Position numbers and translations under genes: made by a program
The notes under the pieces: model-generated
Database searches by the model: none
What the model was told of the DNA's origin: nothing
Seen by the model: only the letters and a program-made list of their open reading frames with translations
Part shown: piece after piece, positions 15,869 to 53,711 of the stretch
Numbering within the stretch: position 1 is the first letter of the stretch
Layout of the letters: each line of letters opens with the position of its first letter
Source of the DNA: Escherichia coli
GTDB lineage: Bacteria > Pseudomonadota > Gammaproteobacteria > Enterobacterales > Enterobacteriaceae
Length of the DNA stretch: 64,000 bases
NCBI RefSeq assembly: GCF_044324785.1
Contig: NZ_CP172127.1
Reading direction: 5' to 3' (one strand)

Positions 15869-15892
15869 AGAGGCATTTTGGCGGAAGATCAC
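15869..15892. repeat. Distal attachment-site direct repeat: 24-bp copy of the selC 3' end (tggcggaagatcacaggagtcgaa)
   Basis: Exact 24-bp identity with 57010..57033, which is the 3' end of tRNA-Sec. Confidence 0.8.
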
Positions 15893-16037
15893 AGGAGTCG
15901 AATATGAATGTTAATGTTTTGATTTTAAATGATTAATCTGTGTTGGATAAATGAGTAACCCCCATAAGAACCCCCAAATAACTTTGTGTAAGGGAATGAA
16001 GCTAAAATACACAATCGAATCAATTCTTAGAGCTTTA

Positions 16038-16880
16038 TTATGAAGGTAACACTCCCGGATAGTGTTTCGCAATAATATCATTCAGCCTGTCAACCAGTTC
16101 TGGTTTCCTGAACCTGATGTGCGCGGAGCCTTTCTTAAAGTATCTGATGCTGAACATCTCATCTTCATAGCATTCTTTACCCTGAACAGACCGGATGTGA
16201 TCATCCAGACGAATAGTGATGTTTTCCCGGTTGTCGGGGATCGGTTTGCCGCTGAACAGATGTAGCATTCTTTCCAGGTCGACGAGTCGGTCAGTCTGTT
16301 GCCCGGTGATAAGATGAAACCCCCACCGGTCCCACCTCACCAGGTTGTTGACGATAATTTTACTGCCAAATTTGCAGGGGCAATTGGTTTTGTAATTCCA
16401 GCTCAGTCCCCTGAAGACGTTGATCACCCCTCGCTCAAACACCTCATCCTTATTCTGGTGTAGTTGTTCAAATGTGATCAGAATGTTCGCTTCACTGATT
16501 TCCGGAAAATTATCGTACTCCAGTGACCGGTACCATGTATCACGGGCCTGTGCATCCATTAAGGAAAGCATCCCTGAACGTTGCATCAGGTCACGCCAGA
16601 TTTCGCGATCGAGATTGCGTGTGATGGCTTTCATTGCGGTTTCCGGTTTCTCCATCAGCCAGCAGCCGCAGCGAAAATCCTGTTTCATGGCCCAGCCCGG
16701 GGCGGCTTTACCGCCAATACTTTCTGTCATTGCTGATATTTCAGCCAGTTGCCGGATAAGTGTGTCGATTTGCAGCAGTGTACTCTTTCGTACAGCCAGA
16801 ATGTGGCGGATACTGGTTGAGCAGATAACGTCCGTATGCCCGGTGACCACTTCCGGACGGGAGATTGTGATGTCTGACAT
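16038..16880 (-). CDS. Conserved island-end protein (DUF4942-like, methyltransferase-like)
   Basis: 280 aa; terminal gene of the yeeP…cbtA-type module; a truncated second copy of its 5' end is at 30782..30940. Confidence 0.5.
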   Translation of the reverse strand: MSDITISRPEVVTGHTDVICSTSIRHILAVRKSTLLQIDTLIRQLAEISAMTESIGGKAAPGWAMKQDFRCGCWLMEKPETAMKAITRNLDREIWRDLMQRSGMLSLMDAQARDTWYRSLEYDNFPEISEANILITFEQLHQNKDEVFERGVINVFRGLSWNYKTNCPCKFGSKIIVNNLVRWDRWGFHLITGQQTDRLVDLERMLHLFSGKPIPDNRENITIRLDDHIRSVQGKECYEDEMFSIRYFKKGSAHIRFRKPELVDRLNDIIAKHYPGVLPS

Positions 16881-16964
16881 TATCGGTTTCCCTTTTGGTT
16901 TATAAACGAAAACGCCAGCCCTGTTCAGGCTGGCGTCAGTGGAATGAAGTATGGTGAGTGAGGC

Positions 16965-17390
16965 TCACGCGCTCAGGTGAATGAGTTGCAGGTGACGCAG
17001 GGTGCGGACATCCTCCCTGGCCTGTTCGATACAGGGCAACAATGCTGCCGAATCCGTTTTATCCTCATCGTTGTCGAAAATAATTCCGGACCCGCAGTCG
17101 ATATTGTCCTGCAGCCACGCAATGAGGATATCCAGCGCTGTTTCAGTGGTTAATGGCATCACGCTCTGTATCACTGTATTGTCTTCCGGCAACTGATGAG
17201 AGCTGGCAGAAGTCGCCGGTGTTTCGGTAGCGTCACGTTCATCCACCACGCGGAGTGAATAACCGTTTTCAGCGACCTTGTTAATCAGTTCAGTGAGCTC
17301 AACACCATCAATGTCAACGACAATTCGCCCTATATTCAGTGCCTGTACGTTAACGCTGTCTGCTTCCAATGTCAGGGCCAGTTTCATCAT
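16965..17390 (-). CDS. Hypothetical protein downstream of cbtA (YeeW-like position)
   Basis: 141 aa, acidic; overlaps the cbtA stop by 4 bp; its 3' end is duplicated at 30616..30705. Confidence 0.55.
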   Translation of the reverse strand: MMKLALTLEADSVNVQALNIGRIVVDIDGVELTELINKVAENGYSLRVVDERDATETPATSASSHQLPEDNTVIQSVMPLTTETALDILIAWLQDNIDCGSGIIFDNDEDKTDSAALLPCIEQAREDVRTLRHLQLIHLSA

Positions 17391-17761
17391 TTCGCCTCCG
17401 GATACTTACCCAGGGTAATGTTATTTACCGTTCTGTAATTGTCGCGGGTCATCAGGCCGGTCGCCCTGCGAGCCCGGAGGATATCGATGCTGTTTATTAA
17501 CTGAGAGCGGGTACAGGCGCTGAATCCCGGCTGGTTGGTACGCACCAGCGCGTATTTTTCCACGAGAAAGTTCACCGCATCACACAGTGAAATGCCTGCC
17601 TCAATATGCAGCTCAATCACGCGTTCATCCGCGAACGGTGTGTCATTCAGCGTAAGGCTGTAATGCTGGTCCAGTAACCGGGTGAGCAGTGTCTGCCAGA
17701 TGGTGACGGGAGACGGGCAGCACGATGCCTCCCGTACATGCGTGTCGGGTAATGTTTTCAT
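17387..17761 (-). CDS. cbtA: CbtA/YeeV-family type IV toxin (cytoskeleton-binding toxin)
   Basis: 124 aa; …WQTLLTRLLDQHYSLTLNDTPFADERVIELHIEAGISLCDAVNFLVEKYALVRTNQPGFSACTRSQLINSIDILRARRATGLMTRDNYRTVNNITLGK… matches the family. Confidence 0.85.
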   Translation of the reverse strand: MKTLPDTHVREASCCPSPVTIWQTLLTRLLDQHYSLTLNDTPFADERVIELHIEAGISLCDAVNFLVEKYALVRTNQPGFSACTRSQLINSIDILRARRATGLMTRDNYRTVNNITLGKYPEAK

Positions 17762-17850
17762 AATGAAGATTTTCCTGATATGCAGAGATAAAAAATGGGA
17801 CAGTGGCGTGGTGAAAACACCAGGCCGGAGCAGAAGATTATTCTGATGAT

Positions 17851-18219
17851 TTACTTTTTCGTTTCGGGCGTCGGATAAACAGCCAGATAAACGTAACCAC
17901 AGGAGCCGAGGGTGTCGGCTTCACAGGTCAGCCCCTTCGCATACAGTGTCACGGTATGCTGATGGCGGGGATTCAGTTCACCGCTGGTGAGCATGAGCTC
18001 CAGTTGTTTCATCGGCAGCGGAAAGGCCTGGTCCGGATGGTACGCATCCGCATCTCTGAACCGGCCTCTGATACCGGCACGGTCGGCAAGGTAATGCAAC
18101 CGGTTACCCTCCTGCACCAGACGTGCCCCGAAACAGGGCGTCACGGTGCAGGGCAGTCCCCACCAGAGGCGGTCGTGATTGTCGTCGTGATGCGTTGTCC
18201 CGGGGAGTGTGTCTGACAC
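17851..18219 (-). CDS. cbeA: CbeA/YeeU-family antitoxin
   Basis: GTG start (VSDTLPGTT…) gives 122 aa matching YeeU; the track ORF 17851..18339 has an unsupported N-terminal extension. Confidence 0.8.
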   Translation of the reverse strand: MSDTLPGTTHHDDNHDRLWWGLPCTVTPCFGARLVQEGNRLHYLADRAGIRGRFRDADAYHPDQAFPLPMKQLELMLTSGELNPRHQHTVTLYAKGLTCEADTLGSCGYVYLAVYPTPETKK

Positions 18220-18268
18220 GATAAAATCCTCACAGAAAATCGTTGAATGATAGTTTAACTTTGACAGG

Positions 18269-18913
18269 TCAGCCGGTGCGCAGACCGGCTTCGGTGAAGG
18301 TGTATTCGTTGATGAGAAGGGCCTCATCCACAGGGGCATCTGAGGTCAGCCTGTTGTGCTCGTTTTCCAGTTGACGGTACAGCCATAAGGCCAGGTCGCG
18401 CAGGGCTTCGCTGACAGCGGCTTCCGCATCTGTTGTCATAGTCTGACCAGTCGGACTGTTCCGGGTAACAGTGATATCCATGCTGTACGGATGGCAGTAG
18501 CGTCCCCGGCGGTGGATTTCAGCCTGCAGTTGCCAGAAGTTACGCTTCTGCACCGCCTGCAGGGCATCCGCGATACGATGGAGTTCATGCTCCTGTGGGG
18601 CATACTTCCGGATTATCCGGGCTGTCGCCGGCTGCCAGTGCCAGCGTCCTTCAAAACAGGCTCCGTCCCCCTGGCTGCAGCATCCGCTGAACCAGATGCA
18701 CGGCTCTTCCATAAACCTGCCGTTGCTGAGCCGGAAAACGCGCTGGCGGAGGTCAATTCCGAAAATGTCACAGACCGCCCTGAAGTCCTCATACACGTTT
18801 TCATACCAGTTGCTGTCAGCATGATGCTGACGGTACCCGTCGCGGGCTTTTCCCCGTACCGGGCAGGAAAGTTCATCCAGCGTATACACTGTGATGGTGA
18901 TAATGCTGCTCAT
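18269..18913 (-). CDS. Hypothetical protein (214 aa) between the DUF987 gene and the antitoxin
   Basis: Long ORF in operon orientation; Cys/Trp-rich segment CIWFSGCCSQGDGACFEGRWHW; no family recognised. Confidence 0.5.
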   Translation of the reverse strand: MSSIITITVYTLDELSCPVRGKARDGYRQHHADSNWYENVYEDFRAVCDIFGIDLRQRVFRLSNGRFMEEPCIWFSGCCSQGDGACFEGRWHWQPATARIIRKYAPQEHELHRIADALQAVQKRNFWQLQAEIHRRGRYCHPYSMDITVTRNSPTGQTMTTDAEAAVSEALRDLALWLYRQLENEHNRLTSDAPVDEALLINEYTFTEAGLRTG

Positions 18914-18931: not shown

Positions 18932-19153
18932 TCAGTTCAGGGTGACGCTCATCAGCCGGACATACGGGCCAAAACTGTCCTTACGGCGTTCAGCAAACAC
19001 GGCCAGCACACCGGGAATATCCTGTACTTCACGACCGGTATACGTCTCAGCACTGCCGTGCCAGCGGTACTTACCGGTGCAGAACGGAAATAGACGGGAT
19101 GCAGGATGCTGTTGGTGAATACGCATGGCTTCACCACGGGTGATAATTTTCAT
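18932..19153 (-). CDS. Small YeeT-like protein (DUF987)
   Basis: 73 aa; conserved position between the RadC-like gene and the toxin-antitoxin pair. Confidence 0.65.
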   Translation of the reverse strand: MKIITRGEAMRIHQQHPASRLFPFCTGKYRWHGSAETYTGREVQDIPGVLAVFAERRKDSFGPYVRLMSVTLN

Positions 19154-19215: not shown

Positions 19216-19692
19216 TTAAAGCAGACCATGTTCGGCAAAGGAGAAAACCTGGCTGCCACCGACTATCAGATGGTCCGGCACCCGGATATCCACCAGGCCC
19301 AGTGCCTGTACCAGACGTTCCGTGATAAGGCGGTCTGCCTTGCTGGGTGTGACTTCACCGGACGGGTGATTGTGCGCCAGCACCACGGCAGCGGCATTGT
19401 GGTACAGGGCGCGTTTAATCACTTCCCGGGGATGGACTTCCGTGCGGTTGATGGTGCCGGTGAAGAGGGTTTCACCGGCAATCAGCTGATTCTGGTTGTT
19501 CAGATACAGCACCCGGAATTCTTCACGCTCCAGTCCCGCCATGTTCAGAATCAGCCATTCCCGTGCCGCATGCGTGGAGGTGAAGGCCACGCCGGGTTCA
19601 TGAAGATGGCGGTCCAGGGCTTTCAGGGCCCGCTGAATGAGGCTGCGCTCTCTGGTTGTCATTTCTCCGGGCAGAAAGGAAATCTGTTGCAT
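19216..19692 (-). CDS. RadC-like JAB-domain protein (YeeS/YfjY family)
   Basis: 158 aa; JAMM motif region …VVLAHNHPSGEVTPSKAD…. Confidence 0.85.
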   Translation of the reverse strand: MQQISFLPGEMTTRERSLIQRALKALDRHLHEPGVAFTSTHAAREWLILNMAGLEREEFRVLYLNNQNQLIAGETLFTGTINRTEVHPREVIKRALYHNAAAVVLAHNHPSGEVTPSKADRLITERLVQALGLVDIRVPDHLIVGGSQVFSFAEHGLL

Positions 19693-19707: not shown

Positions 19708-20193
19708 TCAGTCAATGATGCGCATAATGGCGCTGCATTCCGGATGCTGCAGGGCGTAATCCCGCAGACGGTAATAATGAACCGTCATGGCATAACACTC
19801 CGTACGGCAGGCGTGATGACTGTACGTCATCAGACAGGCAGCAATGCCGGCGGCTTCCGGGCTCATTTCAGCGCGGTTACCGTTCATGGCATTGAACAGT
19901 ACCCATGTTTCGTCATCATCATCATCCGGTTCGGGGGCCATAAATGCCCCGCCGTTGTTCAGGGTGTACAGATTCCAGATACCACCGCAGTAGTCTTCGC
20001 ACAGACGGTCCATCCAGCCGAAGACACGGGGCTCCAGGGTCACCCACTGTGGAATGAGGCCAAAATGCTGCGGCCAGAAGCTGATGCGCTGTTCATCAGG
20101 GACGGGAGTGGCAACCAGTTGAGACTGGTTATTCCCTGATGCAGTAGTTACGGAAACAGAAGGTGTGGTGGAGCTATGCGAAAAGGTTGTCAT
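19708..20193 (-). CDS. Antirestriction protein, KlcA/ArdB family
   Basis: 161 aa; acidic stretch PEPDDDDDETW and characteristic position upstream of the RadC-like gene. Confidence 0.7.
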   Translation of the reverse strand: MTTFSHSSTTPSVSVTTASGNNQSQLVATPVPDEQRISFWPQHFGLIPQWVTLEPRVFGWMDRLCEDYCGGIWNLYTLNNGGAFMAPEPDDDDDETWVLFNAMNGNRAEMSPEAAGIAACLMTYSHHACRTECYAMTVHYYRLRDYALQHPECSAIMRIID

Positions 20194-20284: not shown

Positions 20285-21103
20285 TCAGCGCATGCTCTCC
20301 AGCAGCGTTTCTGCCATCACCCACAATGCGCGGTTGAGTTTTATATCGGTATCAATGCTGTGAATGGCCCGGGTATGGATACGTTTTCCTTTTGCACTGC
20401 GACCGGAAATCCCGCCTTTCAGCATATTCTCCTGGATGGTCTGATAAGCACTCCACAGGTCCTTACCGTAATCCTCCCGGCGTCGTGGTGTCAGAATGTC
20501 GGCGGTGGTGACGGGCTGATGTTCGTCACCATAACGGTAAGTCAGTGCCGCCTGTGCCAGCGCCTGGCGTGCCGGTGGCGGCAGGACCAGCGACTGCATG
20601 GCATCACGCTTCTCCTCTATCCGGTCAAACACGCCCACCACCTCGTAAGCCCCTTCAATGACTCTGTCCACCACATTTCCCCGGTGCGGAACACGCACTT
20701 CCCCCAGAGACTGACCGCAGACGCATCCGTTCTGGCAGACGAACCTGAAGTAACCCGGCAGCATCTGGTAGCTGGAGGTACCGTCATGAGAGTTGAGCAG
20801 AATAATTTCAGGGACATGTTGTCCGTTTATCTCCCCGTCACGGCGCAGACGCAGCATGTGTTTGGTATACCCCCGGCGGCCCGGGTCACGTACGCGGGTC
20901 TGGCAGGCGAAGAATGGCTGAAAGCCTTCCCGCTGCAGGCTTTCCAGCACGGTGATGGTGGGGATGTATGTATAGTTCCGGCTCCGGGAGGTGTGTTTAT
21001 CTTCCCCGAAAATCCCGGGCACATGGTGCATCAGCTCTTCACGGGTCAGCGGACGGTCACGGCGTATCTGGTTCGCATAACCAAAACGACTGGCTAATCG
21101 CAT
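20285..21103 (-). CDS. DUF932-family protein (YfjQ/YafZ-like)
   Basis: 272 aa; immediately downstream of the GTPase gene, as in CP4-type elements. Confidence 0.7.
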   Translation of the reverse strand: MRLASRFGYANQIRRDRPLTREELMHHVPGIFGEDKHTSRSRNYTYIPTITVLESLQREGFQPFFACQTRVRDPGRRGYTKHMLRLRRDGEINGQHVPEIILLNSHDGTSSYQMLPGYFRFVCQNGCVCGQSLGEVRVPHRGNVVDRVIEGAYEVVGVFDRIEEKRDAMQSLVLPPPARQALAQAALTYRYGDEHQPVTTADILTPRRREDYGKDLWSAYQTIQENMLKGGISGRSAKGKRIHTRAIHSIDTDIKLNRALWVMAETLLESMR

Positions 21104-21288
21104 ACTTTGCTCCTTATCAGTGGTTAAGACTGAATGACGTAATCAATGAAAAAGCCGCGTCTCACGGAGAAGACGCGGCCTGATGGATGAAATGAATGAG
21201 GGTTTACCGAAGCCCTTCAGCATTGTGGTGACGCAACCGGAAATGCGTTTCCTGGTTATCGCCGGGGCCGGTCAAAAAGCGGGGACAT

Positions 21289-22173
21289 TCAGAACAGGCG
21301 ATCCCACAGTGTGATCAGCAGGCGGATAATGCGATCACGGGCTTTGCGCAGAAGCTGCAGCATCCAGGCCGGAAAGCTGAACCGGGCAATGGCAGCGTCA
21401 AAACTCTGGCCGATGGCGTCACCAAAAGCCTGCTGTGCGTGTTGCTGATCCTGCGCAGTGCGCTTTTCATTCCGGATATGCGAATAAACCGCGCTGGTTG
21501 CCTGTGGTGGCAGGGCGTGGATCATCAGAGACACAAATGCCGGAAGATTCCAGCCGGCAGGAGCGGCAACGGGGAGTACCGGAAATGATGAAGGGAACAG
21601 GGTTGCCACCCGGGCTGTCACCGTCGCCAGCGAGAGTTCCTGGTGACGGGACGGGCATTTTTCTGTGTCGTTCCATTCTTCAGCAGGAAATACGCGATCG
21701 GCATGGCTGAGAACAAACAGAAAACGCGAGGGATCTGCACCTTCATTCAGTAAAAACTGATGCATGGCGATGTCGGCAGCATACGCACGTTCATCAGCCC
21801 GCAGGATCCAGATAATCAGATCCAGTTCGGGCAGTAACTGACTGTAAAGTGCCCGGTATTCCTGATCATGCTGTGGTGTTTCGCCAGTGCCGGGCAGATC
21901 GACCAGCGTCATTCTTCGTTCACCGGGCTGAAAGGTAAGACGATGAGCCTGACGGGTGCAGCCGTTCAGCGGATGCGTGGCGCAGACACGGGACTGAAAA
22001 ATGGCATTGCACAGGCTGCTTTTTCCGGCACCGGATTTACCCATAATGCCAATCACGGGCTCGTAATGAATAACACTGTGGAGATGTTCAAGGATTTTCT
22101 GGCGAATTTCTTCAGGAAGAAACGTCAGATATGATTTCACTTGTGCGGAGAGGGAAGAATGGCTGAATGACAT
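21289..22173 (-). CDS. GTPase-family protein (YeeP/YfjP/YkfA-like, P-loop)
   Basis: 294 aa; Walker A GIMGKSGAGKSSL and G-motifs DLPG…; first gene of the CP4-like module. Confidence 0.8.
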   Translation of the reverse strand: MSFSHSSLSAQVKSYLTFLPEEIRQKILEHLHSVIHYEPVIGIMGKSGAGKSSLCNAIFQSRVCATHPLNGCTRQAHRLTFQPGERRMTLVDLPGTGETPQHDQEYRALYSQLLPELDLIIWILRADERAYAADIAMHQFLLNEGADPSRFLFVLSHADRVFPAEEWNDTEKCPSRHQELSLATVTARVATLFPSSFPVLPVAAPAGWNLPAFVSLMIHALPPQATSAVYSHIRNEKRTAQDQQHAQQAFGDAIGQSFDAAIARFSFPAWMLQLLRKARDRIIRLLITLWDRLF

Positions 22174-22275: not shown

Positions 22276-23229
22276 GTGATGGCATCACTGTCGATTAATA
22301 CGCTACGCCGAATGAGCATTTGTAAAAGTCAGGCCTGGAAAGATACCCAGCGAATACTGAAGCGTAGTGGACTTGTGTACAGAGGGGAACGGTCAGAATC
22401 GTTTGATCCTGAGAAACATTTTAATCGTTATACGGTGCGTTATCTGTACCTGCTTAACATAATTGCGCTTAAGATAAGGTCGGTTAGTAAATTTTCCTGT
22501 TGGATCGAGGTGGGACAATGCCATCGTATGACTGGTAAACATTTATCTCTTAATGCCCCGCCTTTTATGCTGATTCCGCGTAGTATCCGGAGAAAAGTGG
22601 ATGGATTCAGACAGTCAAAAGGTGAAGCAACCCCAAAATCGGCTCAACCGTTCACGGGCAGTTTGTATGAGGTTTTGAGAAAGGAGAGCGATTCAGCTAA
22701 GCTGGACGCATGGATTGCTGAACTGCCTCTGAACTTGCAGGAGGAGGGAAAGGAAATCTCAGTCATGGGATTTAGTCCACGGGCTGTGGCCCGACCTGTT
22801 CTTCGGTCAGCATCCCCGACGTTTGAACTGTTTTATCAGGAGTATCAATCCCTAAGATTAAAATCTGTTTTTAAATTTGAACCAAGATTTGAACAACTTT
22901 TAACAAGACTGAGCTTTAGAAAACAATCAATTCTCAGAAAACAACAATACAGGGTTAAATCGCAATTACTGGAGAGACTGGGGAATGTGTTGTTTTTCAC
23001 GTCGCTTTATAACCAGGGATGTTTAGAGGAGTTTATAAATGCACTTGTGGAAAAGGAGGACATTTATCTGAAAATGTCCCCTGGGGAGGAAAAGGTGAAA
23101 GCACACCAGAAAATGGTTAACTACATTGAAGCGTTCTGCAACAAAATGACGGAAAAATACCTGATGCCCGCAGCAAGCAGACACTACAAAAAGAAGAAAA
23201 TCGCCAGGAGCGAAAGTGGTGAAAGTTAA
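22276..23229 (+). CDS. Hypothetical protein (317 aa, basic), cargo gene of unknown function
   Basis: Long ORF divergent from the GTPase gene; no recognisable motifs; start codon uncertain. Confidence 0.5.
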   Translation: MMASLSINTLRRMSICKSQAWKDTQRILKRSGLVYRGERSESFDPEKHFNRYTVRYLYLLNIIALKIRSVSKFSCWIEVGQCHRMTGKHLSLNAPPFMLIPRSIRRKVDGFRQSKGEATPKSAQPFTGSLYEVLRKESDSAKLDAWIAELPLNLQEEGKEISVMGFSPRAVARPVLRSASPTFELFYQEYQSLRLKSVFKFEPRFEQLLTRLSFRKQSILRKQQYRVKSQLLERLGNVLFFTSLYNQGCLEEFINALVEKEDIYLKMSPGEEKVKAHQKMVNYIEAFCNKMTEKYLMPAASRHYKKKKIARSESGES

Positions 23230-24101
23230 TCCAGTCTACCGTACAGAATCAGTTGTTCCAGAATAGCCTGCTGTGTTGTTTTCCGCTCTCTGGTCAGTCT
23301 GTCCAGAGCGCTTTTTGCGGATGGCGATATCTTTACGTTGATTTGTACCCGTTTATCTTTTTTTCCATCGATAAACTGTTTTCTGAATGCATTGTGCATC
23401 TTGTCGAAAAATCTTTCTTTTGCAGCGAATCCTAGGTGAAATTCTTTTGGCGTCAGTAAACAGGGTGTGTCTGTGGGGAATAACATTTTTAGTAAAACTA
23501 CAATGGCAATATATCTTTCGTTATCATTTACAGGATTAAACCAGGAAAGATATGTGGGTGAGATACGTGCATCAATATATTCCCATGCCCATTTCAGTTG
23601 TTCGGTATTCTTTTTAAGCCATTTGGCTTCGTTTCTCTTTTCGAGTCCCAGCCAGTTTTGATGCATTATTGAGATAATCCGATCTGCTTCCCCATAAAGG
23701 ATTAACGCATTAATCCATTTCCCTATAACATTCAGTCGTGTTTCATGACTTGAAGGAATAATTGTCATGGGGTTATCCTTCATAACGATCACCCCCTTCA
23801 AGGCAGAGTTGAACTCAGATTCATTATTAAGTTTAAGTTTTTCGGGAACTGTATGAGACATAATTAACCAGAACCAGAATGCTGCAATTTCATTTTTTCT
23901 GATCCATTCAGGTATGTGATTATCTGCCAGATTATTATCATTCAATAAATGCTCAGTTGTTTTATTTTTCCAGTCATATCTATTCACGTTATAACCGCCT
24001 TTATATTGTTTCATCTGATTACGCCTCAATCGTTTTCTTTTCTGGTGATTTTCACCATCACATGTCAGTTGTATATGCAAGGGGATCAATAAAAATATCA
24101 C
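23226..24101 (-). CDS. Hypothetical protein with a C-terminal ribbon-helix-helix-like segment (start probably the internal Met at about 24014)
   Basis: 291-aa ORF; C-terminus KRVQINVKISPSAKSALDRLTRERKTTQQAILEQLILYG resembles CopG/RHH DNA-binding motifs; convergent with and overlapping the previous gene by 4 bp. Confidence 0.5.
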   Translation of the reverse strand: MIFLLIPLHIQLTCDGENHQKRKRLRRNQMKQYKGGYNVNRYDWKNKTTEHLLNDNNLADNHIPEWIRKNEIAAFWFWLIMSHTVPEKLKLNNESEFNSALKGVIVMKDNPMTIIPSSHETRLNVIGKWINALILYGEADRIISIMHQNWLGLEKRNEAKWLKKNTEQLKWAWEYIDARISPTYLSWFNPVNDNERYIAIVVLLKMLFPTDTPCLLTPKEFHLGFAAKERFFDKMHNAFRKQFIDGKKDKRVQINVKISPSAKSALDRLTRERKTTQQAILEQLILYGRLD

Positions 24102-31340: not shown

Positions 31341-32210
31341 TCATCCCCTGAACACCTCCCGCCGGTGCCACGCCACAAACCCCTCCTGGGGATAGCATTC
31401 TTTCCCCATCGGCAAGGTAATCGGCTTACCATCAAAATCCCAGAACAACCTGCCAACGATGCCTCCGCCGTTCACCGCCGGCGAAACCTGGATGCGCATA
31501 TCCTCATCCAGACCAATGGATCCTTTATCAAAAGCCTTATGGTGAATCGCGCAGAGCGCCAGGCCGTTAGGGATTTCGCAGGGGCCGCCGTGCTGCTTCC
31601 ACTTGATATGGGCCGCTTCCAGGGCGACGGAGGTATTATCATGGCGCATATTGAAGCCGCAGATAGCGCACTCATAGTTATAGGCGCGCAGCACCTGCTG
31701 GCGAAAATGCGGGTCGCGCTCTTTGCGGATCTGCAGCAGATCAAACCCCATCTCTTCAGCCAGTTCTTCCTGAATACTCTCCGGAAAGTGCGCCTCGAGG
31801 ATCTGATGGGCGAGGGTATTGATCAGCTTCTTATTTCTGTTAAGTAACGCAAAATGCTGCTCATCAAAGCCGCCGGCGACGTGGCAGAGCTCCAGCTCTT
31901 TGCCGGGCGGCTGTCGGCTGCCCTGGGTTGAGCACTGTTCGCTGTTGTGTAGCTCCCAGAAGCCGTCGCCTTTCAGGCGCCAGAAGGGCATGTCCGGCCG
32001 GTACTGGCGGCGCTGCGGGCCAAAGCGTTCCAGCAGGCTATGCAGCTCATCACGTATCTCCGAGGCGTAGTCGAACATCCGCGCATGGCCGCGCTGGTAT
32101 TGCGAGAGGACGTACAGCAGCAATAGTGGTTTATGCGGCGCACGCTGTTCGCCTTTGCGCCAGATGGTGATGTTCTCGATCGCGTGTTGCAGGGTCGTGC
32201 TGGAGGGCAT
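31341..32210 (-). CDS. HNH endonuclease-domain protein, putative modification-dependent (type IV-like) restriction nuclease
   Basis: HNH core YECAICGFNMRHDNTSVALEAAHIKWKQHGGPCEIPNGLALCAIHHKAFDKG in the C-terminal half; N-terminal about 180 aa unassigned. Start taken at the second Met (MPSSTT…). Confidence 0.6.
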   Translation of the reverse strand: MPSSTTLQHAIENITIWRKGEQRAPHKPLLLLYVLSQYQRGHARMFDYASEIRDELHSLLERFGPQRRQYRPDMPFWRLKGDGFWELHNSEQCSTQGSRQPPGKELELCHVAGGFDEQHFALLNRNKKLINTLAHQILEAHFPESIQEELAEEMGFDLLQIRKERDPHFRQQVLRAYNYECAICGFNMRHDNTSVALEAAHIKWKQHGGPCEIPNGLALCAIHHKAFDKGSIGLDEDMRIQVSPAVNGGGIVGRLFWDFDGKPITLPMGKECYPQEGFVAWHRREVFRG

Positions 32211-32389
32211 AGCGTTACATTGGCAGCTAAATAAATGCGATGATGCTCGCAAAATCCTTGCCGATCAACCTACCAGATGCGGCGATTCTACGTGGATCGC
32301 GATTTAATTATCACTGCCAGTTATTTGTTCGAAAAGACCATAGCTTTCTATTTATACTCAAGCTTCGCGCCATCAGATAGCTATGTCTT

Positions 32390-33028
32390 ATGAAAAAACT
32401 ACCGGACCATTTATCCAGGGAATGCATCATCGCCGCCATTCGCGCTTACGATGCAGGCGTTGCGCATCAGTTTAAAAGCGCGCGTCTGTATGAGATCGAG
32501 TTTGAGGGGCGTCGGTATCCTTCAAAAGCCATCGTCGGGTTAGCGGCCACGCTTGCGACGGGAACGGAATTTACCCCGGCGGATTTCAGCGGGGGGATTA
32601 AATCAAAATGCGTGCGTCTGTTACTGGAGCAAGGATTTACGATCGCGTCGCAGGGCGCTGGCGATGACGAGGTTGCGCTTTTCCCCGATGAGGGGCAGAC
32701 GACCATGGAGTACGTGGAAGGGGCGGCGTTGCAGGTGGTGGTCAATCGCTATGAGCGCGACCGTCAGGCTCGTCAGGCGGCGCTTCGCCTGCATGGCTGC
32801 CAGTGTCAGGTATGCGGTCTGGATATGGCCAGCCGCTATGGCGATATCGGCCAGGGCTTTATCCATATCCACCATCTCATCCCGCTGGCCGGGATAAAGC
32901 AGGACTACCGCCTGAACCCTGAAACCGATCTGATCCCGGTATGTCCCAACTGCCATGCGATGCTGCACCGGCGAGATCCGCCGTTTACCCCCGAAGAGCT
33001 GAAGGCCCGGCTGCGCCCCACAGACTGA
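32390..33028 (+). CDS. McrA-like HNH endonuclease with a distinct N-terminal domain
   Basis: C-terminus CQCQVCGLDMASRYGDIGQGFIHIHHLIPLAGIKQDYRLNPETDLIPVCPNCHAMLHRRD parallels the E. coli McrA HNH motif (C.NCG…HHVIPLS…CPNCH..LH). Confidence 0.65.
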   Translation: MKKLPDHLSRECIIAAIRAYDAGVAHQFKSARLYEIEFEGRRYPSKAIVGLAATLATGTEFTPADFSGGIKSKCVRLLLEQGFTIASQGAGDDEVALFPDEGQTTMEYVEGAALQVVVNRYERDRQARQAALRLHGCQCQVCGLDMASRYGDIGQGFIHIHHLIPLAGIKQDYRLNPETDLIPVCPNCHAMLHRRDPPFTPEELKARLRPTD

Positions 33029-33110: not shown

Positions 33111-34790
33111 TTACTTATCCCGCGTCTCGCCAGCCTCCCAGCTGTAGCTGCCATCGGCCGCTAAGCTATCGCCCAGCTCCTGATACTCGAACTGATAAAA
33201 CTCAGCCTGGGTGCCGTACCCGGCGTAGTCTACCGCCGCCAGGCCGACGAACGCCCCGGTAAAGAACCCGCCGTAGCTCTGCAACACATAGTCATCGGAC
33301 AGCACCGCGGCATCCAGCTGGACCGGGATCTCGGTGAACGTCACGCCATCGAAGCTGTATTCATAGCTGTAGGTCTGCTTGCGGACTTTGGTCCGGAACC
33401 AGACGTATTCCACGCCGTCCGGCACCTTGATGGCGTTATCTTTCAGGTACGACGTGTATTTCCCGCGGTTATTTTCGCCGACTTCGATGACCTTGCCGTT
33501 AATTTCATTCCAGGTCAGGAAGACGAAGCTCCAGTGGCGGTCGTTATAGTAATTCGTTAACCCGGCCATCTGCTGGTAGCTGAAGGGCTCGAATTTCACC
33601 TTCACCGCGGCGTCAAAATAGAAGGCCTGCCAGCGGCGGGCAATCAGCGACAGATCATGCGTATTGGCTAACGAGCCCTGGCCGATTAAGGTTAATTTGC
33701 CGTTACCGGTGGTGCCCATTTTGGCCGTAAACGGCACCCGCAGGGTATTCCAGTTCGGGTCGAGGGCTGGCGACGTAAAGTCATCCTGCTGGCTATTATC
33801 GCTGGCGCTTTCGGTGAAGATGGCGTCTTTCGGTCCTTCGACGAAGGTTTTCCCGCCGTGACCGCCTTCAATACGCGGCCAGCCCTCGTCATCCCAGTAC
33901 ACTTTCTGGATCGCGGTTTCCCGGCCGAGGGTTGACCAGCCGCGCGGGTCGTAGATGGATTCCCCCGGGCGATTCCACGGCCGGGCGCAGAGCGAGGCGT
34001 AATACCATTCGCCTTCCGGGGTGGAGACCAGCGCGCCATGGCCCTGTTTCTGGATGTAGCTGTCCGGGGTGTCGACGTTGGTTAAGAACACGTCGCCCGG
34101 CTCGGTTTCAAAGCTGTCGGCCTCGAGGGTTTTCGACCGCGCCACCACCTCCTGGTGGGTAAACACGGTGCCGCCCTGGGCGGCAAACAGGTAGTAGTAG
34201 CCGTTCAGTTTATAGAGGTGCGGCCCCTCGACCAGCGCTACGGCGGTGCCGCGGTAGATGGTGCGCGCGGTTTCCGGCATTAACTTCAGCGTGTTGGTAT
34301 CCAGCTCCGTTAAGGTAATGCCATCGAAGGGGTGATGGTACTCCCGGTGATCCCAGGTTTGCTGGACGATATATTTCCGGCCATCGTCGTCATGGAACAG
34401 CGAGGCGTCAAACCCGACTCCGTTCAGCTTGATCGGGTCGCTCCACGGGCCCCGAATATCCTTCGCGGTGGTCAGGTAGTTGGTCATGTCTTTGAAGGCG
34501 CCTTCGGTGACCTTCACATCGGTATACACCAACCAGAATTGCCCGTCGGCCCAGGAGAGCGCCGGCGCCCAAATGCCGCCGGAGGAGGGGTTGCCCTTCA
34601 TGTCCAGCAGGGTGGTGGTGGAGAGCGGCGAAGGCAGCAGGTTCCAGTTTTTCAGGTCTTTCGACTCATGTAAACGCACGCCCGGAAACCACTCAAACGT
34701 CGAGTTGGCAATATAGTACGTATCCTCGACGCGAATAATACTGGGGTCGGCATTAAAGCCGCGTAATATCGGGTTTTGAATAAGTGACAT
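33111..34790 (-). CDS. xynB: Glycoside hydrolase family 43 beta-xylosidase / alpha-L-arabinofuranosidase
   Basis: 559 aa; N-terminal five-bladed propeller catalytic signature (…GFNADPSIIRVEDTYYIANSTFEWFPGVRLHESKDLKNW…) and C-terminal beta-sandwich typical of XynB-type enzymes. Confidence 0.8.
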   Translation of the reverse strand: MSLIQNPILRGFNADPSIIRVEDTYYIANSTFEWFPGVRLHESKDLKNWNLLPSPLSTTTLLDMKGNPSSGGIWAPALSWADGQFWLVYTDVKVTEGAFKDMTNYLTTAKDIRGPWSDPIKLNGVGFDASLFHDDDGRKYIVQQTWDHREYHHPFDGITLTELDTNTLKLMPETARTIYRGTAVALVEGPHLYKLNGYYYLFAAQGGTVFTHQEVVARSKTLEADSFETEPGDVFLTNVDTPDSYIQKQGHGALVSTPEGEWYYASLCARPWNRPGESIYDPRGWSTLGRETAIQKVYWDDEGWPRIEGGHGGKTFVEGPKDAIFTESASDNSQQDDFTSPALDPNWNTLRVPFTAKMGTTGNGKLTLIGQGSLANTHDLSLIARRWQAFYFDAAVKVKFEPFSYQQMAGLTNYYNDRHWSFVFLTWNEINGKVIEVGENNRGKYTSYLKDNAIKVPDGVEYVWFRTKVRKQTYSYEYSFDGVTFTEIPVQLDAAVLSDDYVLQSYGGFFTGAFVGLAAVDYAGYGTQAEFYQFEYQELGDSLAADGSYSWEAGETRDK

Positions 34791-34848
34791 TTCATTACAC
34801 CTTTTAAAATGGAAAGTGACGAATCGGTCTGATTTATAATTTTTTTAA

Positions 34849-36342
34849 CTACACGCGGATCTCATCCAGCTGACGGTTGATGTCGGTAACATGTTTATCG
34901 GAGATCGGATAAACCTGGATAATCACCATCGAAATAGCGGCCAGCGCGATCGGGATCCACACCGCGGTCATAATGATCCCGTCGATGGCGCTGGCGCTCT
35001 GCACGGCGCCGCTTTCATTAAAGCCATACACCGCCAGCAGCCACAGCGGGATCGCGCCGCCGATGGTGAAGCCGATCTTGAAGAAGAGTCCCATAATGGC
35101 ATTGATAATGGCGGCATTGCGTTTGCCAGATTTTAATTCGCCGTACGCGATGACTTCCGGTACCAGCGCCCACATAAAGCCGGTGGCGGAGGTTAAGCCC
35201 CACTGTTTAATAAAGGTGGCGATGTAGGCCAGCCACAGGGCGTCGTGCATCCCTTCGCGGGACCAGACGTAGGTCAGCAGTTCGCCGACGATAAACATGG
35301 CGAGGAACAGATGGAAGAAGCCTTTTTTACCAAAGATTTTTTTCAGTTTCGGCCAGAAAATCGGGAAGGCGATGCCGGGAATAGACGCGACGAGACCCAC
35401 CGCGCCCATCCATTCGGAGTGGCCGACGACGTACTGGTTGAAGAAGCCGTTAACAGTGTTCATGAAGAACATGAAGGTAAAGGCCAGCATAAAGAACATG
35501 CCCAGAATAACCAGCGGGCGGTTATGTCGGAGCTCGTGGAAAAGGTCGGTGGTTTTGACGTTGGCGGTCTGCTCGGCGGTCGCGACAACGCGTTCTTTGG
35601 TGAATTTATAACAGATAAACAGAGCCACCGCGCCGATGATCATATAGATGGCGTACACGCCAAACCAGGCGTAATTTGCCGACGGATCGGTATAATTCCC
35701 CAGATTCAGCTCAAGGCCAAAAAAGCCGGTGTCTTTCAGGCTGCGATCTTTCGGCGCCGCCATCTGCACAAACATCGGGAACAGGGTATAGACCAGCAGG
35801 TTGGCGCTGTTGGCCAGCATCATGCGGGTACTGGTCAGTTTATCGATCGATTCCGGGTCGCGGGTCAGCGACGCATTCAGCGAGCCATAGGGAATATTGA
35901 CTAAGGAATAAACCAGGTCCAGCGCCAGATAAATAATAAAGGCGAAAGCCACCGAACCTTTCACTCCGGGGATGGGCGCGAACAGTAATGCCGAGAGGAT
36001 CACCAGCGGCACGCCGGCTCGTAACAGCCACGGACGATATTTCCCTGCCTTCGAGGTTCGTTTATCCACGTAGGTGCCGACCATCGGATCCCAAAACACG
36101 TTAATTATGCGGACAAAAAGAAAAATAAAGCCTGCCGTTGCCGTGCTGATGGTATTTACCGTCAGCATATGCAAAGCCAGAAAACCCCCAATTGTGCCGA
36201 AAACCAGGTTTTGCGCAAAGTCGCCCATGCCATAACCAATTCGTTCTCCACGGGTTAATTTATGATATTCATCATGCCGACTGTGCATTATGTTTTTACT
36301 CATTCTAAGCAGACTCCGGTTTGTTTTGTGTAGGTGAAACAC
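34849..36342 (-). CDS. Glycoside-pentoside-hexuronide (GPH) family cation symporter, probable xyloside transporter
   Basis: Up to 497 aa (start uncertain); motif GERIGYGMGDFAQN and 12-TM profile; operon with the GH43 gene. Confidence 0.8.
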   Translation of the reverse strand: MFHLHKTNRSLLRMSKNIMHSRHDEYHKLTRGERIGYGMGDFAQNLVFGTIGGFLALHMLTVNTISTATAGFIFLFVRIINVFWDPMVGTYVDKRTSKAGKYRPWLLRAGVPLVILSALLFAPIPGVKGSVAFAFIIYLALDLVYSLVNIPYGSLNASLTRDPESIDKLTSTRMMLANSANLLVYTLFPMFVQMAAPKDRSLKDTGFFGLELNLGNYTDPSANYAWFGVYAIYMIIGAVALFICYKFTKERVVATAEQTANVKTTDLFHELRHNRPLVILGMFFMLAFTFMFFMNTVNGFFNQYVVGHSEWMGAVGLVASIPGIAFPIFWPKLKKIFGKKGFFHLFLAMFIVGELLTYVWSREGMHDALWLAYIATFIKQWGLTSATGFMWALVPEVIAYGELKSGKRNAAIINAIMGLFFKIGFTIGGAIPLWLLAVYGFNESGAVQSASAIDGIIMTAVWIPIALAAISMVIIQVYPISDKHVTDINRQLDEIRV

Positions 36343-36714
36343 TTTCTGACACAGTTGACATGGAAGAATCTATTACGTTTTTAAATTAAGTAATTATGTT
36401 TTTTTACTTCTGTGATCCTCGAAGCAAAGACCTGTATCACTTGCGTTGAGCCGCCATCCGCCGCTAATTTTTTGGCAGACAGGCAATGTGACAAAACCGG
36501 CATTTTAATTCGCTATGCCCACCTGAATTCCCCAGGAAGTGTACTCTATACGCGCGCGAAGCGAGATATTTAAAATAGTTTTATTTGCGAGATGGCTCAC
36601 ATTTGAGCATTTTCTCAATCGCTGAGTGAAATAACGTAATTGAGCAACCGACGATGAGAATACACGATGTGTCACAGTTGTTAATTTTCGGCTTCCTCAA
36701 TTTCGGAGTTCATC

Positions 36715-38034
<1,320 letters not shown>

Positions 38035-38364
38035 ATTTGGCTGACATGCCCCTGCGGGGGCATGTATTCCGCCGTGTGCCCGCTGCCGGGAAATAGCGTT
38101 TATTTGTTCGTGTTGTATTTATGCTGTCTGTGCCGAAAGGCTATCTGTTTGACTGTCTATAGAGGAACAATCCGCCGCGCGGATGGTTCTGCCATTGTGC
38201 CACCTTTTTAATATCAGTGAGGGAGGGCGAGTAGCGATAATTGTGTAATGCCTCTGTGACCGTACAAAATAAAAAATAACTTGTTCTGATGATAGCGACA
38301 TATTCTGTCAGCTCAGAATAGGCTGGTTATTGTCTGAATAAAATTAACCTATATTGAGAAACTC

Positions 38365-39747
38365 ATGACAATGATAAAAAAACTTCCATTAACCATGGCG
38401 GTTATCGCCGCGTTTTTTCCGCTTACCTCTGTAATGGCGCAAGAATTTACTCAGGAACAGATCGACGCCATCGTCGCCAAAGCCGTTGATAAAGCGCTGG
38501 CCGACCGCCAGGCGAAAATTGACGCCGCGGCCGACAAAAAGGTCGACGTCATTACCAACCCACAGACCACCGCCGCCTCGCCGGATATGGCCATTCCGTT
38601 CGGCCTCAAGTTCAGCGGCTATGCCCGCTATGGCGCCCATTTCCAGACCGGCGACCAGAAATATGTCGGCGTCGACGGCTCCTATAACGGCGCCTCGGCG
38701 ATCGGCCGTCTGGGCAACGAAAGCAACGGCGGCGAATTCCAGATCAGCAAAGCCTTCAAAAGCGCGCAGGGGGCTATCTGGGATCTCAACGTCATGTTCG
38801 ACCACTGGAGCGACGAGGTTAACCTGAAGAAGGCCTACGTCGGCGTCACCAACGTGCTGGAATCCAATCCCAACGCCTATATCTGGGCCGGCCGCGACTT
38901 CCACCAGCGTCCGCAACAGGGGATCAACGACTACTTCTGGATGAACCACGACGGCCAGGGCGCCGGGGTGAAGAACTTTGATATCGGCGGCGTGCAGTTC
39001 GACGTGGCGGCGGTGTCGCAGGTGAAATCCTGTAGCCCGGAAGTGATGGCCGACGAGACCAACCCGTCGCGTATCACCTGTACCGGCAGCTCCGACACCG
39101 GGGACAACGGCCACTACGCGCTGACCACCAAAACCCACAACATCAAGGCCGGGCCGATCGACGTCGAGGTGTACGCCAACTACGGCTTTGACTCGAAGGC
39201 GGTGGACAGCGACGCGCGTCTCGAAGCCTGGCAGGGCGGCCTGGTGCTGAGCCACACCAACGACAGCGGGGTGAACAAGGTGATCCTGCGCTACTCCGAT
39301 AACTCGGATAACAGCGTCTACAACAAAACCGACGACCTGACCACGGTCTACGCTAGCTTCGAGGGCAGCCATAAGTTCACCCAGCAGGCGCAGGTGGAAT
39401 ATCTGCTGGCCTTCCACGACTACGACAACGGCAAAGATAATACCGACAACCGCAAAAACTACGGTGCCATCGTGCGGCCGATGTACTTCTGGAACGACGT
39501 GCACTCCACCTGGCTGGAAGCGGGCTACCAGCGCGTGGACTACGACCAGGGCGGGGATAACCACGGCTGGAAGCTGACGCTGTCGCAGAACATCGCCATC
39601 GGCATGGGGCCGGAGTTCCGTCCGATGCTGCGCTTCTACGTGACCGGCGGTCAGGTGGACAACGAGCATACCGCTAAGGTCAACGGCACCAAAGACCAGC
39701 AGCTGGATTCGCTGAACGTCGGCGGGATGTTTGAGGCGTGGTTCTGA
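38365..39747 (+). CDS. Carbohydrate-selective outer-membrane porin (LamB/ScrY family) with N-terminal coiled-coil extension
   Basis: 460 aa; signal peptide, ScrY-like N-terminal helical extension, C-terminal aromatic end (…MFEAWF). Confidence 0.65.
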   Translation: MTMIKKLPLTMAVIAAFFPLTSVMAQEFTQEQIDAIVAKAVDKALADRQAKIDAAADKKVDVITNPQTTAASPDMAIPFGLKFSGYARYGAHFQTGDQKYVGVDGSYNGASAIGRLGNESNGGEFQISKAFKSAQGAIWDLNVMFDHWSDEVNLKKAYVGVTNVLESNPNAYIWAGRDFHQRPQQGINDYFWMNHDGQGAGVKNFDIGGVQFDVAAVSQVKSCSPEVMADETNPSRITCTGSSDTGDNGHYALTTKTHNIKAGPIDVEVYANYGFDSKAVDSDARLEAWQGGLVLSHTNDSGVNKVILRYSDNSDNSVYNKTDDLTTVYASFEGSHKFTQQAQVEYLLAFHDYDNGKDNTDNRKNYGAIVRPMYFWNDVHSTWLEAGYQRVDYDQGGDNHGWKLTLSQNIAIGMGPEFRPMLRFYVTGGQVDNEHTAKVNGTKDQQLDSLNVGGMFEAWF

Positions 39748-52208: not shown

Positions 52209-53711
52209 ATGAATATCAGAAAACTGTTTTGTCCGGGAAACACCCCCCGGATTTTATTGTTTTTATTCTTTTTTGTTGTTTCTGTAATAACCACAATTGC
52301 ATGCGGATACACTGAGAAGAATGCCACCGGGAATGTGTTGCTGCTGTTCCTTCTTCTGCTCCTTGCACACAGAAATACCCTCACATCCATTACAGCGCTG
52401 TTATTTCTGTTCTGTTGTGCACTGTATGCGCCTGCCGGTATGACGTACGGTAAAATCAACAACAGTTTTATTGTCGCGTTGCTGCAGACCACAACTGATG
52501 AGGCAGCGGAGTTTACCGGGATGATTCCTGTTTATCATTTTCTGGTCAGTGCCGCGATTCAGGTATTCATGGTGATTTTCTGGCGAACACACCGCCGTGG
52601 TCACCGTAACTGGCTGGCACTGCTGCTGTTCGTATTATGCTCAGTAAACAGCTGGCCGTTGCGGATGGTTAAAGGAACTGTTGTGGGGACAACTGACACA
52701 TTGCGTGAAATGCAACATTATAAACAACTGAGTCAGCACGGGGCTGACAACTGGAAAATCCTGCCGGGAACACCGTTATATGACACAATTGTTATTGTCA
52801 CTGGTGAGAGTGTGCGCAGGGATTATATGTCGGTATATGGCTATCCCGTGCCAACCACGCCGTGGCTGAATACAGCTCCCGGTTTATTTATTGACGGCTA
52901 TACATCGGCAGCAGCCAGTACCGTACCTTCCCTGAGCCGGACACTGATTTATGACTATGAGCAGAACCCTGACTCCGGCAACAACGTGGTGGCGCTGGCA
53001 GCAAAAGCAGGATACAGCACATGGTGGATATCCAATCAGGGAAAGCTGGGGGAGCATGATACACGCATCTCTGTTATTGCTTCTGATGCGGAGCATACCG
53101 TTTTCCTCAAGAAAGGCAGCTTTGCTTCCCGTAAAACGGATGACATGTTGTTGTTACAGGAAACAGAACGTGCACTGGCGGATAAATCCTCTCCGAAGGT
53201 GATTTTTCTGCACATGATGGGGTCTCATCCGAACCCGTGTGACCGGCTTCACTCCTGGCCGAATCATTACCTGGAGCAGTATCCCCGAAAGGTTGCCTGT
53301 TACCTCGCCAGCATCAGTAAACTGGATAACTTTCTCTGTCAGCTTGATGGTATCCTTCGCCGGCATTCCCGTCATTTCGCCATGCTTTACTTTTCTGACC
53401 ATGGTCTGTCGGTCAGCGACAGTGCTAATCCTGTTCATCATGATGGCCATATACAAGGAGGCTACAGCGTTCCCCTGATTATTACCGCCAGTGACATCAC
53501 GTCTCATCAGTCCGTCAGCAGAAAAATCAGTGCCCGTCATTTCGCAGGTATTTTTCAGTGGCTGACCGGCATTCGTACTGAAAATATACCGCCATTCAAT
53601 CCGCTGACAGACGAAGATAATGAACCCATTATGGTTTTTAACGGAGACAAGAATGTACCGACAGACAGCCTTGAGTCACAGCCTCTGATTCTTCCGGGCA
53701 AGGGAAAATAA
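52209..53711 (+). CDS. Inner-membrane sulfatase-fold phosphoethanolamine-transferase-family protein (EptA/OpgE/YhbX superfamily)
   Basis: 500 aa; N-terminal TM helices, then …TIVIVTGESVRRDYMSVYGY… and …VIFLHMMGSHPNPCDRL… resembling the PEtN-transferase HxxGSH motif region. Confidence 0.6.
   Translation: MNIRKLFCPGNTPRILLFLFFFVVSVITTIACGYTEKNATGNVLLLFLLLLLAHRNTLTSITALLFLFCCALYAPAGMTYGKINNSFIVALLQTTTDEAAEFTGMIPVYHFLVSAAIQVFMVIFWRTHRRGHRNWLALLLFVLCSVNSWPLRMVKGTVVGTTDTLREMQHYKQLSQHGADNWKILPGTPLYDTIVIVTGESVRRDYMSVYGYPVPTTPWLNTAPGLFIDGYTSAAASTVPSLSRTLIYDYEQNPDSGNNVVALAAKAGYSTWWISNQGKLGEHDTRISVIASDAEHTVFLKKGSFASRKTDDMLLLQETERALADKSSPKVIFLHMMGSHPNPCDRLHSWPNHYLEQYPRKVACYLASISKLDNFLCQLDGILRRHSRHFAMLYFSDHGLSVSDSANPVHHDGHIQGGYSVPLIITASDITSHQSVSRKISARHFAGIFQWLTGIRTENIPPFNPLTDEDNEPIMVFNGDKNVPTDSLESQPLILPGKGK

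Follow-up and report, generated by a model that had tools for sequence, protein, structure and literature searches.

The reference elements for the locus studied here are the CP4 elements of Escherichia coli K-12, of which CP4-44 carries the functional, experimentally studied prototype of the CbtA/CbeA toxin-antitoxin (TA) pair. The gene order is yeeS-yeeT-cbeA-cbtA-yeeW in CP4-44, lfgA-lfgB-ypjJ-yfjZ-ypjF in CP4-57 and yafX-ykfG-ykfH-yafW-ykfI in CP4-6, and in none of these elements does a gene lie between the DUF987 gene and the antitoxin gene. We examined a 64,000-nucleotide stretch of E. coli DNA (referred to throughout as the window; NCBI RefSeq assembly GCF_044324785.1, contig NZ_CP172127.1) in which a gene for a 214-aa protein occupies that place. 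A first-pass annotation of the window, made from the sequence alone, had pointed to this gene at 17387-18913 together with the TA pair, had not recognised its family from the reference CP4 prophages, and had suggested that it might be an additional component of the TA module. Its account of the gene content agrees with ours: the three genes are present on the minus strand, the 214-aa gene lies between the DUF987 gene and CbeA, and comparison of the K-12 gene orders given above confirms that none of them includes it.

17387..17761, minus strand: CbtA/YeeV toxin, 124 aa (PF06755, E 2.7e-61, full length; 110/124 identical to K-12 CbtA)
17851..18219, minus strand: CbeA/YeeU type IV antitoxin, 122 aa, GTG start (PF06154, E 8.8e-52; 110/122 identical to K-12 CbeA)
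18269..18913, minus strand: 214-aa protein of the DUF8835 / phrog_5162 family (open reading frame with a Shine-Dalgarno sequence; identical to RefSeq WP_045146861.1)
18932..19153, minus strand: DUF987 protein (YeeT-like), 73 aa (PF06174, E 9.7e-40; 71/73 identical to K-12 YeeT)

Our analysis indicates that the gene is very probably an independent accessory gene of mobile elements and not a component of the TA module. Nor is the family an unfamiliar one: a domain search matched the protein to phrog_5162, whose function is unassigned, with an E-value of 6.4e-31 (residues 3-212 on profile positions 3-197 of 201), and the identical RefSeq protein is named DUF8835 domain-containing, although RefSeq also uses the label 'antitoxin' for records of this family. 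Relatives gave 2,288 matches among 90%-identity clusters, and the family comprises 2,753 clusters at 50% identity, with lengths of 200-220 aa almost throughout. They occur in 542 species-representative genomes, on 108 plasmid records (41 of them typed as conjugative), in 57 GenBank phage records and in at least 443 viral contigs. DUF8835 is a family found free-standing on conjugative plasmids, integrative and conjugative elements (ICEs), tRNA-integrated islands and lytic phages. Because 2,045 of the 5,426 complete E. coli genomes carry it (Nissle 1917, EC958 and ATCC 25922 among them), in 2,953 places altogether and up to eight times in one genome, the protein is a standard, widely annotated member of these modules, the very outcome that the first-pass annotation had named as refuting its suggestion. 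In 46 records, which are chromosomes of varied human and animal origin, the best match to the window protein is at least 99% identical. As the protein belongs to a catalogued, uncharacterised family, the finding is already known at the level of the family, although the family is without a characterised member; we found no study of it in the literature on DUF8835, on the 'antitoxin ... stability system' label or on yeeT/yeeU/yeeV islands.

Judged from sequence, the gene is a real one, because its homologs of equal length number in the thousands and because dN/dS values of 0.16-0.30 in the deeper enteric and alphaproteobacterial comparisons indicate purifying selection. An alignment of 110 family sequences revealed a conserved core, FSGFxSQGDGAcFeG, at residues 75-89, as well as near-invariant residues E14, L15, G52, H141, W177, Y179, L182, N202, F206 and G210 and the polar stretch Q81-G-D83-G within the core. 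The window protein has the core motif except for F78C and keeps E14, H141, W177, Y179, N202, F206 and G210; it does not differ in kind from the rest of the DUF8835 / phrog_5162 family, its deviations (A19V, W26G and F78C) being minor. The earlier description of the protein as Cys/Trp-rich is accurate for the window allele, which has 7 Cys (3.3%) and 6 Trp (2.8%), but does not extend to the family, in which cysteines are not conserved (median 3.5 per member, range 0-10). Alphaproteobacterial and gammaproteobacterial copies share 55-60% identity. This identity, the constant length and the near-invariant polar residues (E14, Q81-G-D83-G, H141 and N202) suggest an enzyme, or else a protein that binds a conserved ligand or nucleic acid, and not an inhibitor of one variable host protein, for which we would expect less conservation of sequence and length.

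The structure predicted with AlphaFold2 (AF2) is a mixed alpha/beta fold of high confidence (predicted local distance difference test, pLDDT, 96; predicted template modelling score, pTM, 0.88). The protein gave no match in Pfam or NCBIfam (in copies that lack the DUF8835 HMM), PADLOC or the PDB sequence libraries; its profile searched against the PDB gave chance matches only (herpesvirus gO, E 0.46), Foldseek against the PDB gave no match under E 0.2, and comparison of the fold with BFVD returned uncharacterised phage proteins only. No solved or characterised structure thus proved to be related to its confidently predicted fold. Searching the 110 family members against Pfam likewise identified no consistent family; DUF4518, matched by 8 of the 110 with a best E-value of 0.002, was judged spurious.

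The distribution of the family is independent of CbtA/CbeA. Our species-level sample consisted of the 80 closest DUF8835 loci (L012-L091), 79 of them from Alphaproteobacteria and one from Salmonella, and in none of the 79 alphaproteobacterial loci was CbtA, CbeA, DUF987, DUF5983 or DUF4942 found within 10 kb of the DUF8835 gene. Phage copies sit within runs of small genes of unknown function, and a survey of 117 immediate neighbours on 59 viral contigs, 94 of the neighbours lying on the same strand as DUF8835, identified no recurrent partner. Across the sampled phage and viral contexts CbtA/CbeA stood beside DUF8835 in a single case, an enteric-type contig, and among all loci examined CbeA and CbtA were confined to those of enterobacteria. 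Even in E. coli, DUF8835 is optional beside the TA pair: its 2,953 places compare with 13,839 places of CbtA/CbeA type (~21%), so that about four in five of the latter are without it.

A further indication comes from K-12 itself, where the spacer between yeeT and cbeA in CP4-44 (MG1655 NC_000913.3 2077039-2077111; locus L011 7040-7112) is the deletion scar of a DUF8835 gene. The 5' part of the scar retains the ribosome-binding site, the ATG and the first ~8 codons of the gene and is identical at 26 of 29 nt to window positions 18923-18895, while the 3' part, consisting of the 43 nt that precede and begin cbeA, is identical at 42 of 43 to window positions 18242-18200. The remnant open reading frame (ORF) reads MSRIIATTGPFLADFL. 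CP4-57 and CP4-6 hold no remnant of the gene. Taken with the absence of the TA pair from the alphaproteobacterial loci, the lack of a viral partner and the ~21% of E. coli places, this deletion tells against the suggestion that the 214-aa protein is an extra part of the TA module.

In the 79 alphaproteobacterial loci DUF8835 belongs to a conjugative-element array of fixed order, with all genes on one strand: an ArdC-like zincin, DUF2958, in some cases RadC, ParB-N, small genes, a ~139-aa protein that we call h139, and DUF8835, followed by a methyltransferase/AAA_34/Helicase_C_4 strawberry-notch (Sno) protein that combines methylase and helicase, toprim, DUF2493 and DUF736. Across the 80 loci, h139 co-occurs with DUF8835 in 69, the Sno helicase in 61, ParB-N in 58 and toprim in 52. 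Plasmid pRA04 carries, in order, SSB, PD-(D/E)XK, DUF932, RadC, DUF6878, three small genes and DUF8835, and therefore DUF932 and RadC are common to the alphaproteobacterial and gammaproteobacterial arrays. The array of the conjugative plasmid pOT1-2 has rep/par, TraG and Trb genes for neighbours, with TraG and a DUF3363 gene that we take to be relaxase-associated ~18 kb away. The recognisable neighbours on viral contigs include ArdA and other anti-restriction proteins, PD-(D/E)XK, YqaJ and RecE-like exonucleases, DUF932 and DUF3846. Taken together, the neighbourhoods of DUF8835 on plasmids, islands and phages hold ArdC, ParB-N, methylase-helicase, toprim, SSB, RadC, DUF932, an Antirestrict-family protein and ArdA, and a same-strand setting among anti-restriction or establishment genes is common to plasmids and phages.

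The h139 protein represents a second uncharacterised family. In the 69 loci where it precedes DUF8835 its gene overlaps the DUF8835 start by 8 nt (e.g. L077 3045-3461 and L002 9592-10008), and its many invariant residues include C10, W59, W88, C96 and a GGG motif. It has no match in Pfam or the PDB and is absent from phages. Homology of h139 to CbeA or DUF987 was considered and rejected, as BLASTP, Pfam and PDB profile searches detected no relationship. In the Alphaproteobacteria h139 may be a partner of DUF8835.

RadC, ParB, ArdC-N/zincin, toprim, the methylase-SNF2/strawberry-notch dyad and CbtA all occur as domains of proteins that act at the very start of invasion (Iyer et al. 2017, PMC5512222), and anti-defence genes, methylases, SSB, TA systems and many uncharacterised families are over-represented in plasmid leading regions (PMC11541004). 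Because both the alphaproteobacterial and the enterobacterial contexts of DUF8835 are built from stand-alone early-invasion domains, we read it as an autonomous establishment or counter-defence gene. The protein would act alone, soon after the element enters a new cell, protecting or establishing the incoming DNA through counter-defence or manipulation of the host, and the enterobacterial block that runs from DUF932 to DUF5983 would be a local version of the early, or establishment, arrays of mobile elements. As an explanation of the whole, a free-standing DUF8835 gene of mobile elements acting early in establishment or counter-defence has our moderate confidence. That the protein has a specific role of this kind is, by analogy with its neighbours, a proposal that we advance tentatively. 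More speculatively still, DUF8835 could be a new class of invasion-phase effector with an unseen fold, common to conjugative elements, islands and lytic phages across the Proteobacteria, which, by enzymatic action or by sequestering a conserved molecule, disables or bypasses a host barrier that is itself conserved, and which in enterobacteria has been slotted beside CbeA/CbtA, a pair that targets the cytoskeleton, as part of one establishment operon.

Two groups of described proteins invite comparison with DUF8835 in this respect. It resembles the anti-restriction proteins ArdA, ArdB/KlcA and ArdC in niche and neighbourhood, with ArdC upstream of it in Alphaproteobacteria, an Antirestrict protein upstream in E. 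coli and ArdA adjoining it in some viral contigs, and like them it is spread over plasmids, islands and phages. It differs from them in having no homology or fold similarity to any of the three, and anti-restriction by DUF8835 would be a proposed activity. The second group is that of polyvalent proteins (Iyer et al. 2017, PMC5512222), of whose domains the neighbours of DUF8835 are stand-alone counterparts; DUF8835, unlike these domains, matched no domain family in our local copy of Pfam and is nearly always single-domain, and the longer family members that we inspected contained no informative fused domain.

In the window, the DUF8835 gene lies in a same-strand series of genes in the order GTPase, DUF932, antirestriction protein, RadC, DUF987, DUF8835, CbeA, CbtA, DUF5983 and DUF4942, with intergenic gaps of -4 to 91 nt. 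The remaining features of this series are as follows.

21289..22173, minus strand: YeeP-like GTPase, upstream of the block (MMR_HSR1, E 2.2e-14)
21152..21181, minus strand: terminator-like hairpin with a 12 bp stem, upstream of the DUF932 gene
20285..21103, minus strand: DUF932 protein, YafZ/YfjQ-like (PF06067, E 6.1e-52)
19708..20193, minus strand: antirestriction protein (Pfam Antirestrict, PF03230, E 2.4e-37), which we take to be of KlcA/ArdB type
19216..19692, minus strand: RadC-like JAB protein, YeeS/LfgB-like (PF04002, E 1.2e-44; 143/148 identical to K-12)
16965..17390, minus strand: DUF5983_N protein (YeeW-like), 141 aa, overlapping the CbtA stop by 4 nt (PF25638, E 2.3e-28)
16911..16937, minus strand: terminator-like hairpin with an 11 bp stem, after the DUF5983 gene
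16038..16880, minus strand: DUF4942 protein, the last gene of the island (PF13708, E 3.6e-68)

The identities of CbtA, CbeA, DUF987 and RadC to their K-12 counterparts mark this module as one of CP4-44 type. An AAGGGG Shine-Dalgarno sequence precedes the ATG of the DUF8835 gene, which is separated by 18 nt from the DUF987 gene and by 49 nt from CbeA. The mechanical ORF of CbeA spans 17851-18339; its real start is the GTG at 18219, with GAGGA in front, which gives a protein of 122 aa, as for K-12 CbeA. Since two strong hairpins (21181-21152 and 16937-16911) bracket the genes from DUF932 through DUF5983, with DUF8835 inside, the DUF8835 gene is probably co-transcribed with this block. A hairpin scan found no terminator-like structure near DUF8835, and a sigma-70 promoter scan gave only chance-level matches. 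At the end of the block, the ORF at 16965-17390 contains the N-terminal domain of DUF5983 only; two array genes appear to have been joined here by a deletion, because the near-identical strain ES1 is annotated there with a partial DUF5983 gene and a separate DUF957 gene.

Some observations from the enterobacteria favour the alternative that the protein was recruited there as a third CbtA/CbeA component, be it a second antitoxin, a regulator or a modulator of CbeA. All intact enteric arrays examined have the gene next to CbeA, on one side or the other: DUF987-DUF8835-CbeA-CbtA in E. coli and one Salmonella, and DUF987-CbeA-DUF8835-CbtA in Klebsiella (K. michiganensis, L008-L010) and S. diarizonae (L066). 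In a short-spacer allele carried by ~455 E. coli genomes, 34 nt have been lost between the two genes (L097 4575-4740; also L098, E. coli E308), which leaves the DUF8835 stop codon 15 nt from the CbeA start; as many as 97 records show a further TGA-to-TTA change in this allele that has created a 343-aa DUF8835-CbeA read-through ORF. Probable co-transcription of DUF8835 with CbeA and CbtA and the RefSeq label 'antitoxin' point in the same direction. Yet the TA pair is missing from the alphaproteobacterial loci and, apart from one enteric-type contig, from the sampled viral contexts, about four-fifths of the CbtA/CbeA places in E. coli do without DUF8835, and CP4-44 has deleted the gene while its TA pair remains the functional prototype. 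Within the fused ORF, moreover, CbeA retains a Shine-Dalgarno sequence and a GTG of its own, and PGAP calls the fused DUF8835 a pseudogene; as these fusions arose by point mutation of a stop codon, we rejected them as Rosetta-stone evidence. An AF2 model of the fused chain (DUF8835, a 25-residue GS linker and CbeA; only 4 paired rows, no predicted aligned error) had a pTM of 0.61, with pLDDT of ~96 for DUF8835 and 60-86 for CbeA, a disordered linker and domains that fold separately without confident docking, as expected of two undocked domains; given the few paired rows, this is weak negative evidence. DUF8835 resembles the CbeA/YeeU/YagB/YfjZ family (PF06154) in its immediate proximity within enterobacterial arrays, its probable sharing of a transcription unit and its occasional read-through fusion, whereas it differs in length (214 aa as against ~105-125 aa), shows no similarity of sequence or fold to CbeA or to CbtA (PF06755) and has no homology to Phd-type antitoxins; DUF8835 occurs without CbeA in Alphaproteobacteria and phages, and most CbeA genes have no DUF8835 beside them. 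The array itself is also modular, with order flips and an insertion: the two orders of DUF8835 and CbeA belong to DUF8835 variants with 78% identity, which makes the change of position a recent one, and CbeA and CbtA are not always neighbours, being separated by DUF8835 in Klebsiella and S. diarizonae and by an unrelated 76-aa gene in a divergent E. coli array (L103), so the array tolerates insertions. Recruitment of DUF8835 as a third TA component is accordingly, in our estimation, quite unlikely. As for the name that many database records give to the protein, 'antitoxin of a toxin-antitoxin stability system', it would make DUF8835 a genuine antitoxin of the Phd/YefM/StbD type (PF02604), and beyond this inherited name we found nothing that speaks for such an identity. 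The label is generic and has been applied to unrelated proteins in the literature. Antitoxins of the Phd type are ~80-90 aa long, and a 214-aa protein with a mixed alpha/beta predicted fold is unlike them; neither the window protein nor the 110 family members contain a PF02604-type antitoxin domain, no other antitoxin family was matched, and no cognate toxin is conserved beside DUF8835. Sequence has effectively refuted this assignment already, and we give it next to no probability. A family of the same legacy name in the supplement of the leading-region paper cannot be tied to DUF8835 and is probably of Phd type.

Some of the neighbourhoods that we read as establishment contexts would also suit a DNA-processing or replication/recombination accessory that converts or repairs incoming DNA together with the primase, helicase and nuclease genes and is not aimed at host immunity. 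The gene lies between ParB-N and helicase-methylase, toprim and DUF2493 in Alphaproteobacteria, it comes after SSB, the PD-(D/E)XK nuclease and RadC on pRA04, several of its phage neighbours are PD-(D/E)XK, YqaJ or RecE-like exonucleases, and its near-invariant polar residues would befit an enzyme. Sequence, profile and fold searches, however, detected no nuclease, primase, helicase or known DNA-binding fold or motif in the protein, the median pI of the family (4.8) is atypical of a DNA binder, and in the region examined the E. coli islands that carry DUF8835 possess no replication module themselves; we regard such a function as unlikely. A different view of the window copy is that it has become a decaying and now inactive passenger of a cryptic island. 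The toxin and antitoxin are intact and typical, as the first-pass annotation stated, with the exception of L53R, S55R, L62P and L69P in CbeA, where both full-length alleles compared (K-12 cbeA and L097) have L, S, L and L; two of these are changes from Leu to Pro. The DUF8835 allele is off consensus at three conserved positions (A19V, W26G and F78C). Against a close E. coli allele, dN/dS is 0.90 for CbeA and 0.47 for DUF8835, which suggests relaxed constraint on this pair of alleles. Deletions and fusions of DUF8835 are frequent in E. coli, and the island holds insertion sequence (IS) elements and pseudogenes. On the other hand, the DUF8835 ORF is intact and has a good Shine-Dalgarno sequence, its best matches in the 46 chromosomal records mentioned above reach at least 99% identity, and the deeper enteric comparisons indicate purifying selection, so that decay to inactivity seems very unlikely.

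The block that contains DUF8835 forms the distal end of an island of ~41 kb integrated at selC, and an Rfam scan matched tRNA-Sec alone. The limits of the island are marked by the following features.

57010..57104, minus strand: tRNA-Sec (selC), integration site of the island
55526..56710, minus strand: tyrosine integrase adjoining selC (Phage_integrase, Arm-DNA-bind_3 and Phage_int_M domains)
15879..15904, plus strand: direct repeat of the selC 3' end (24/26), distal boundary of the island

Immediately upstream of the GTPase gene lie two convergent genes, 22276-23229 (plus strand, 317 aa) and 23226-24101 (minus strand, 291 aa), which have no Pfam match, are hypothetical in RefSeq, and are seen again beside the module in other E. 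coli genomes (L001 and L101). Two genes for HNH endonucleases lie further within the island, at 31341-32252 (minus strand) and 32390-33028 (plus strand), and may constitute a defence gene pair, because in the collinear strain ES1 the first bears the annotation of a phosphorothioated-DNA-binding restriction endonuclease. Other cargo occupies 33111-39747, 47983-49962 and 52209-53711, with IS3 and IS66 elements interspersed; it includes a GH43 glycosidase, an MFS transporter, a xylose isomerase and a porin, all four of which take their names from the annotation of ES1, and a PhoX alkaline phosphatase and an EptA/B-family phosphoethanolamine transferase, both confirmed by Pfam. Outside the island, by yicS-nlpA-yicL-setC, window positions 1-11398 contain the end of iatC, which encodes an inverse autotransporter, together with the regulator gene eilA and genes for type III secretion translocators and chaperones (IpaD/SipD-like, YopB/SseC-like and SycD-like).

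For the window, the 214-aa protein is one of the common, catalogued accessories that CP4-like islands carry, and the reading of the CbtA/CbeA pair is unchanged by its presence. The K-12 reference elements represent these arrays in reduced form, and the scar left by DUF8835 in CP4-44 therefore shows how comparisons with K-12 only can make ordinary genes look novel. With thousands of members of constant length under purifying selection, a confident fold and a presence on plasmids, islands and phages near anti-restriction genes, DUF8835 is a good target for experiment. Should it turn out to serve counter-defence or establishment, one of the many uncharacterised families that are enriched in the early regions of mobile elements would gain a function.

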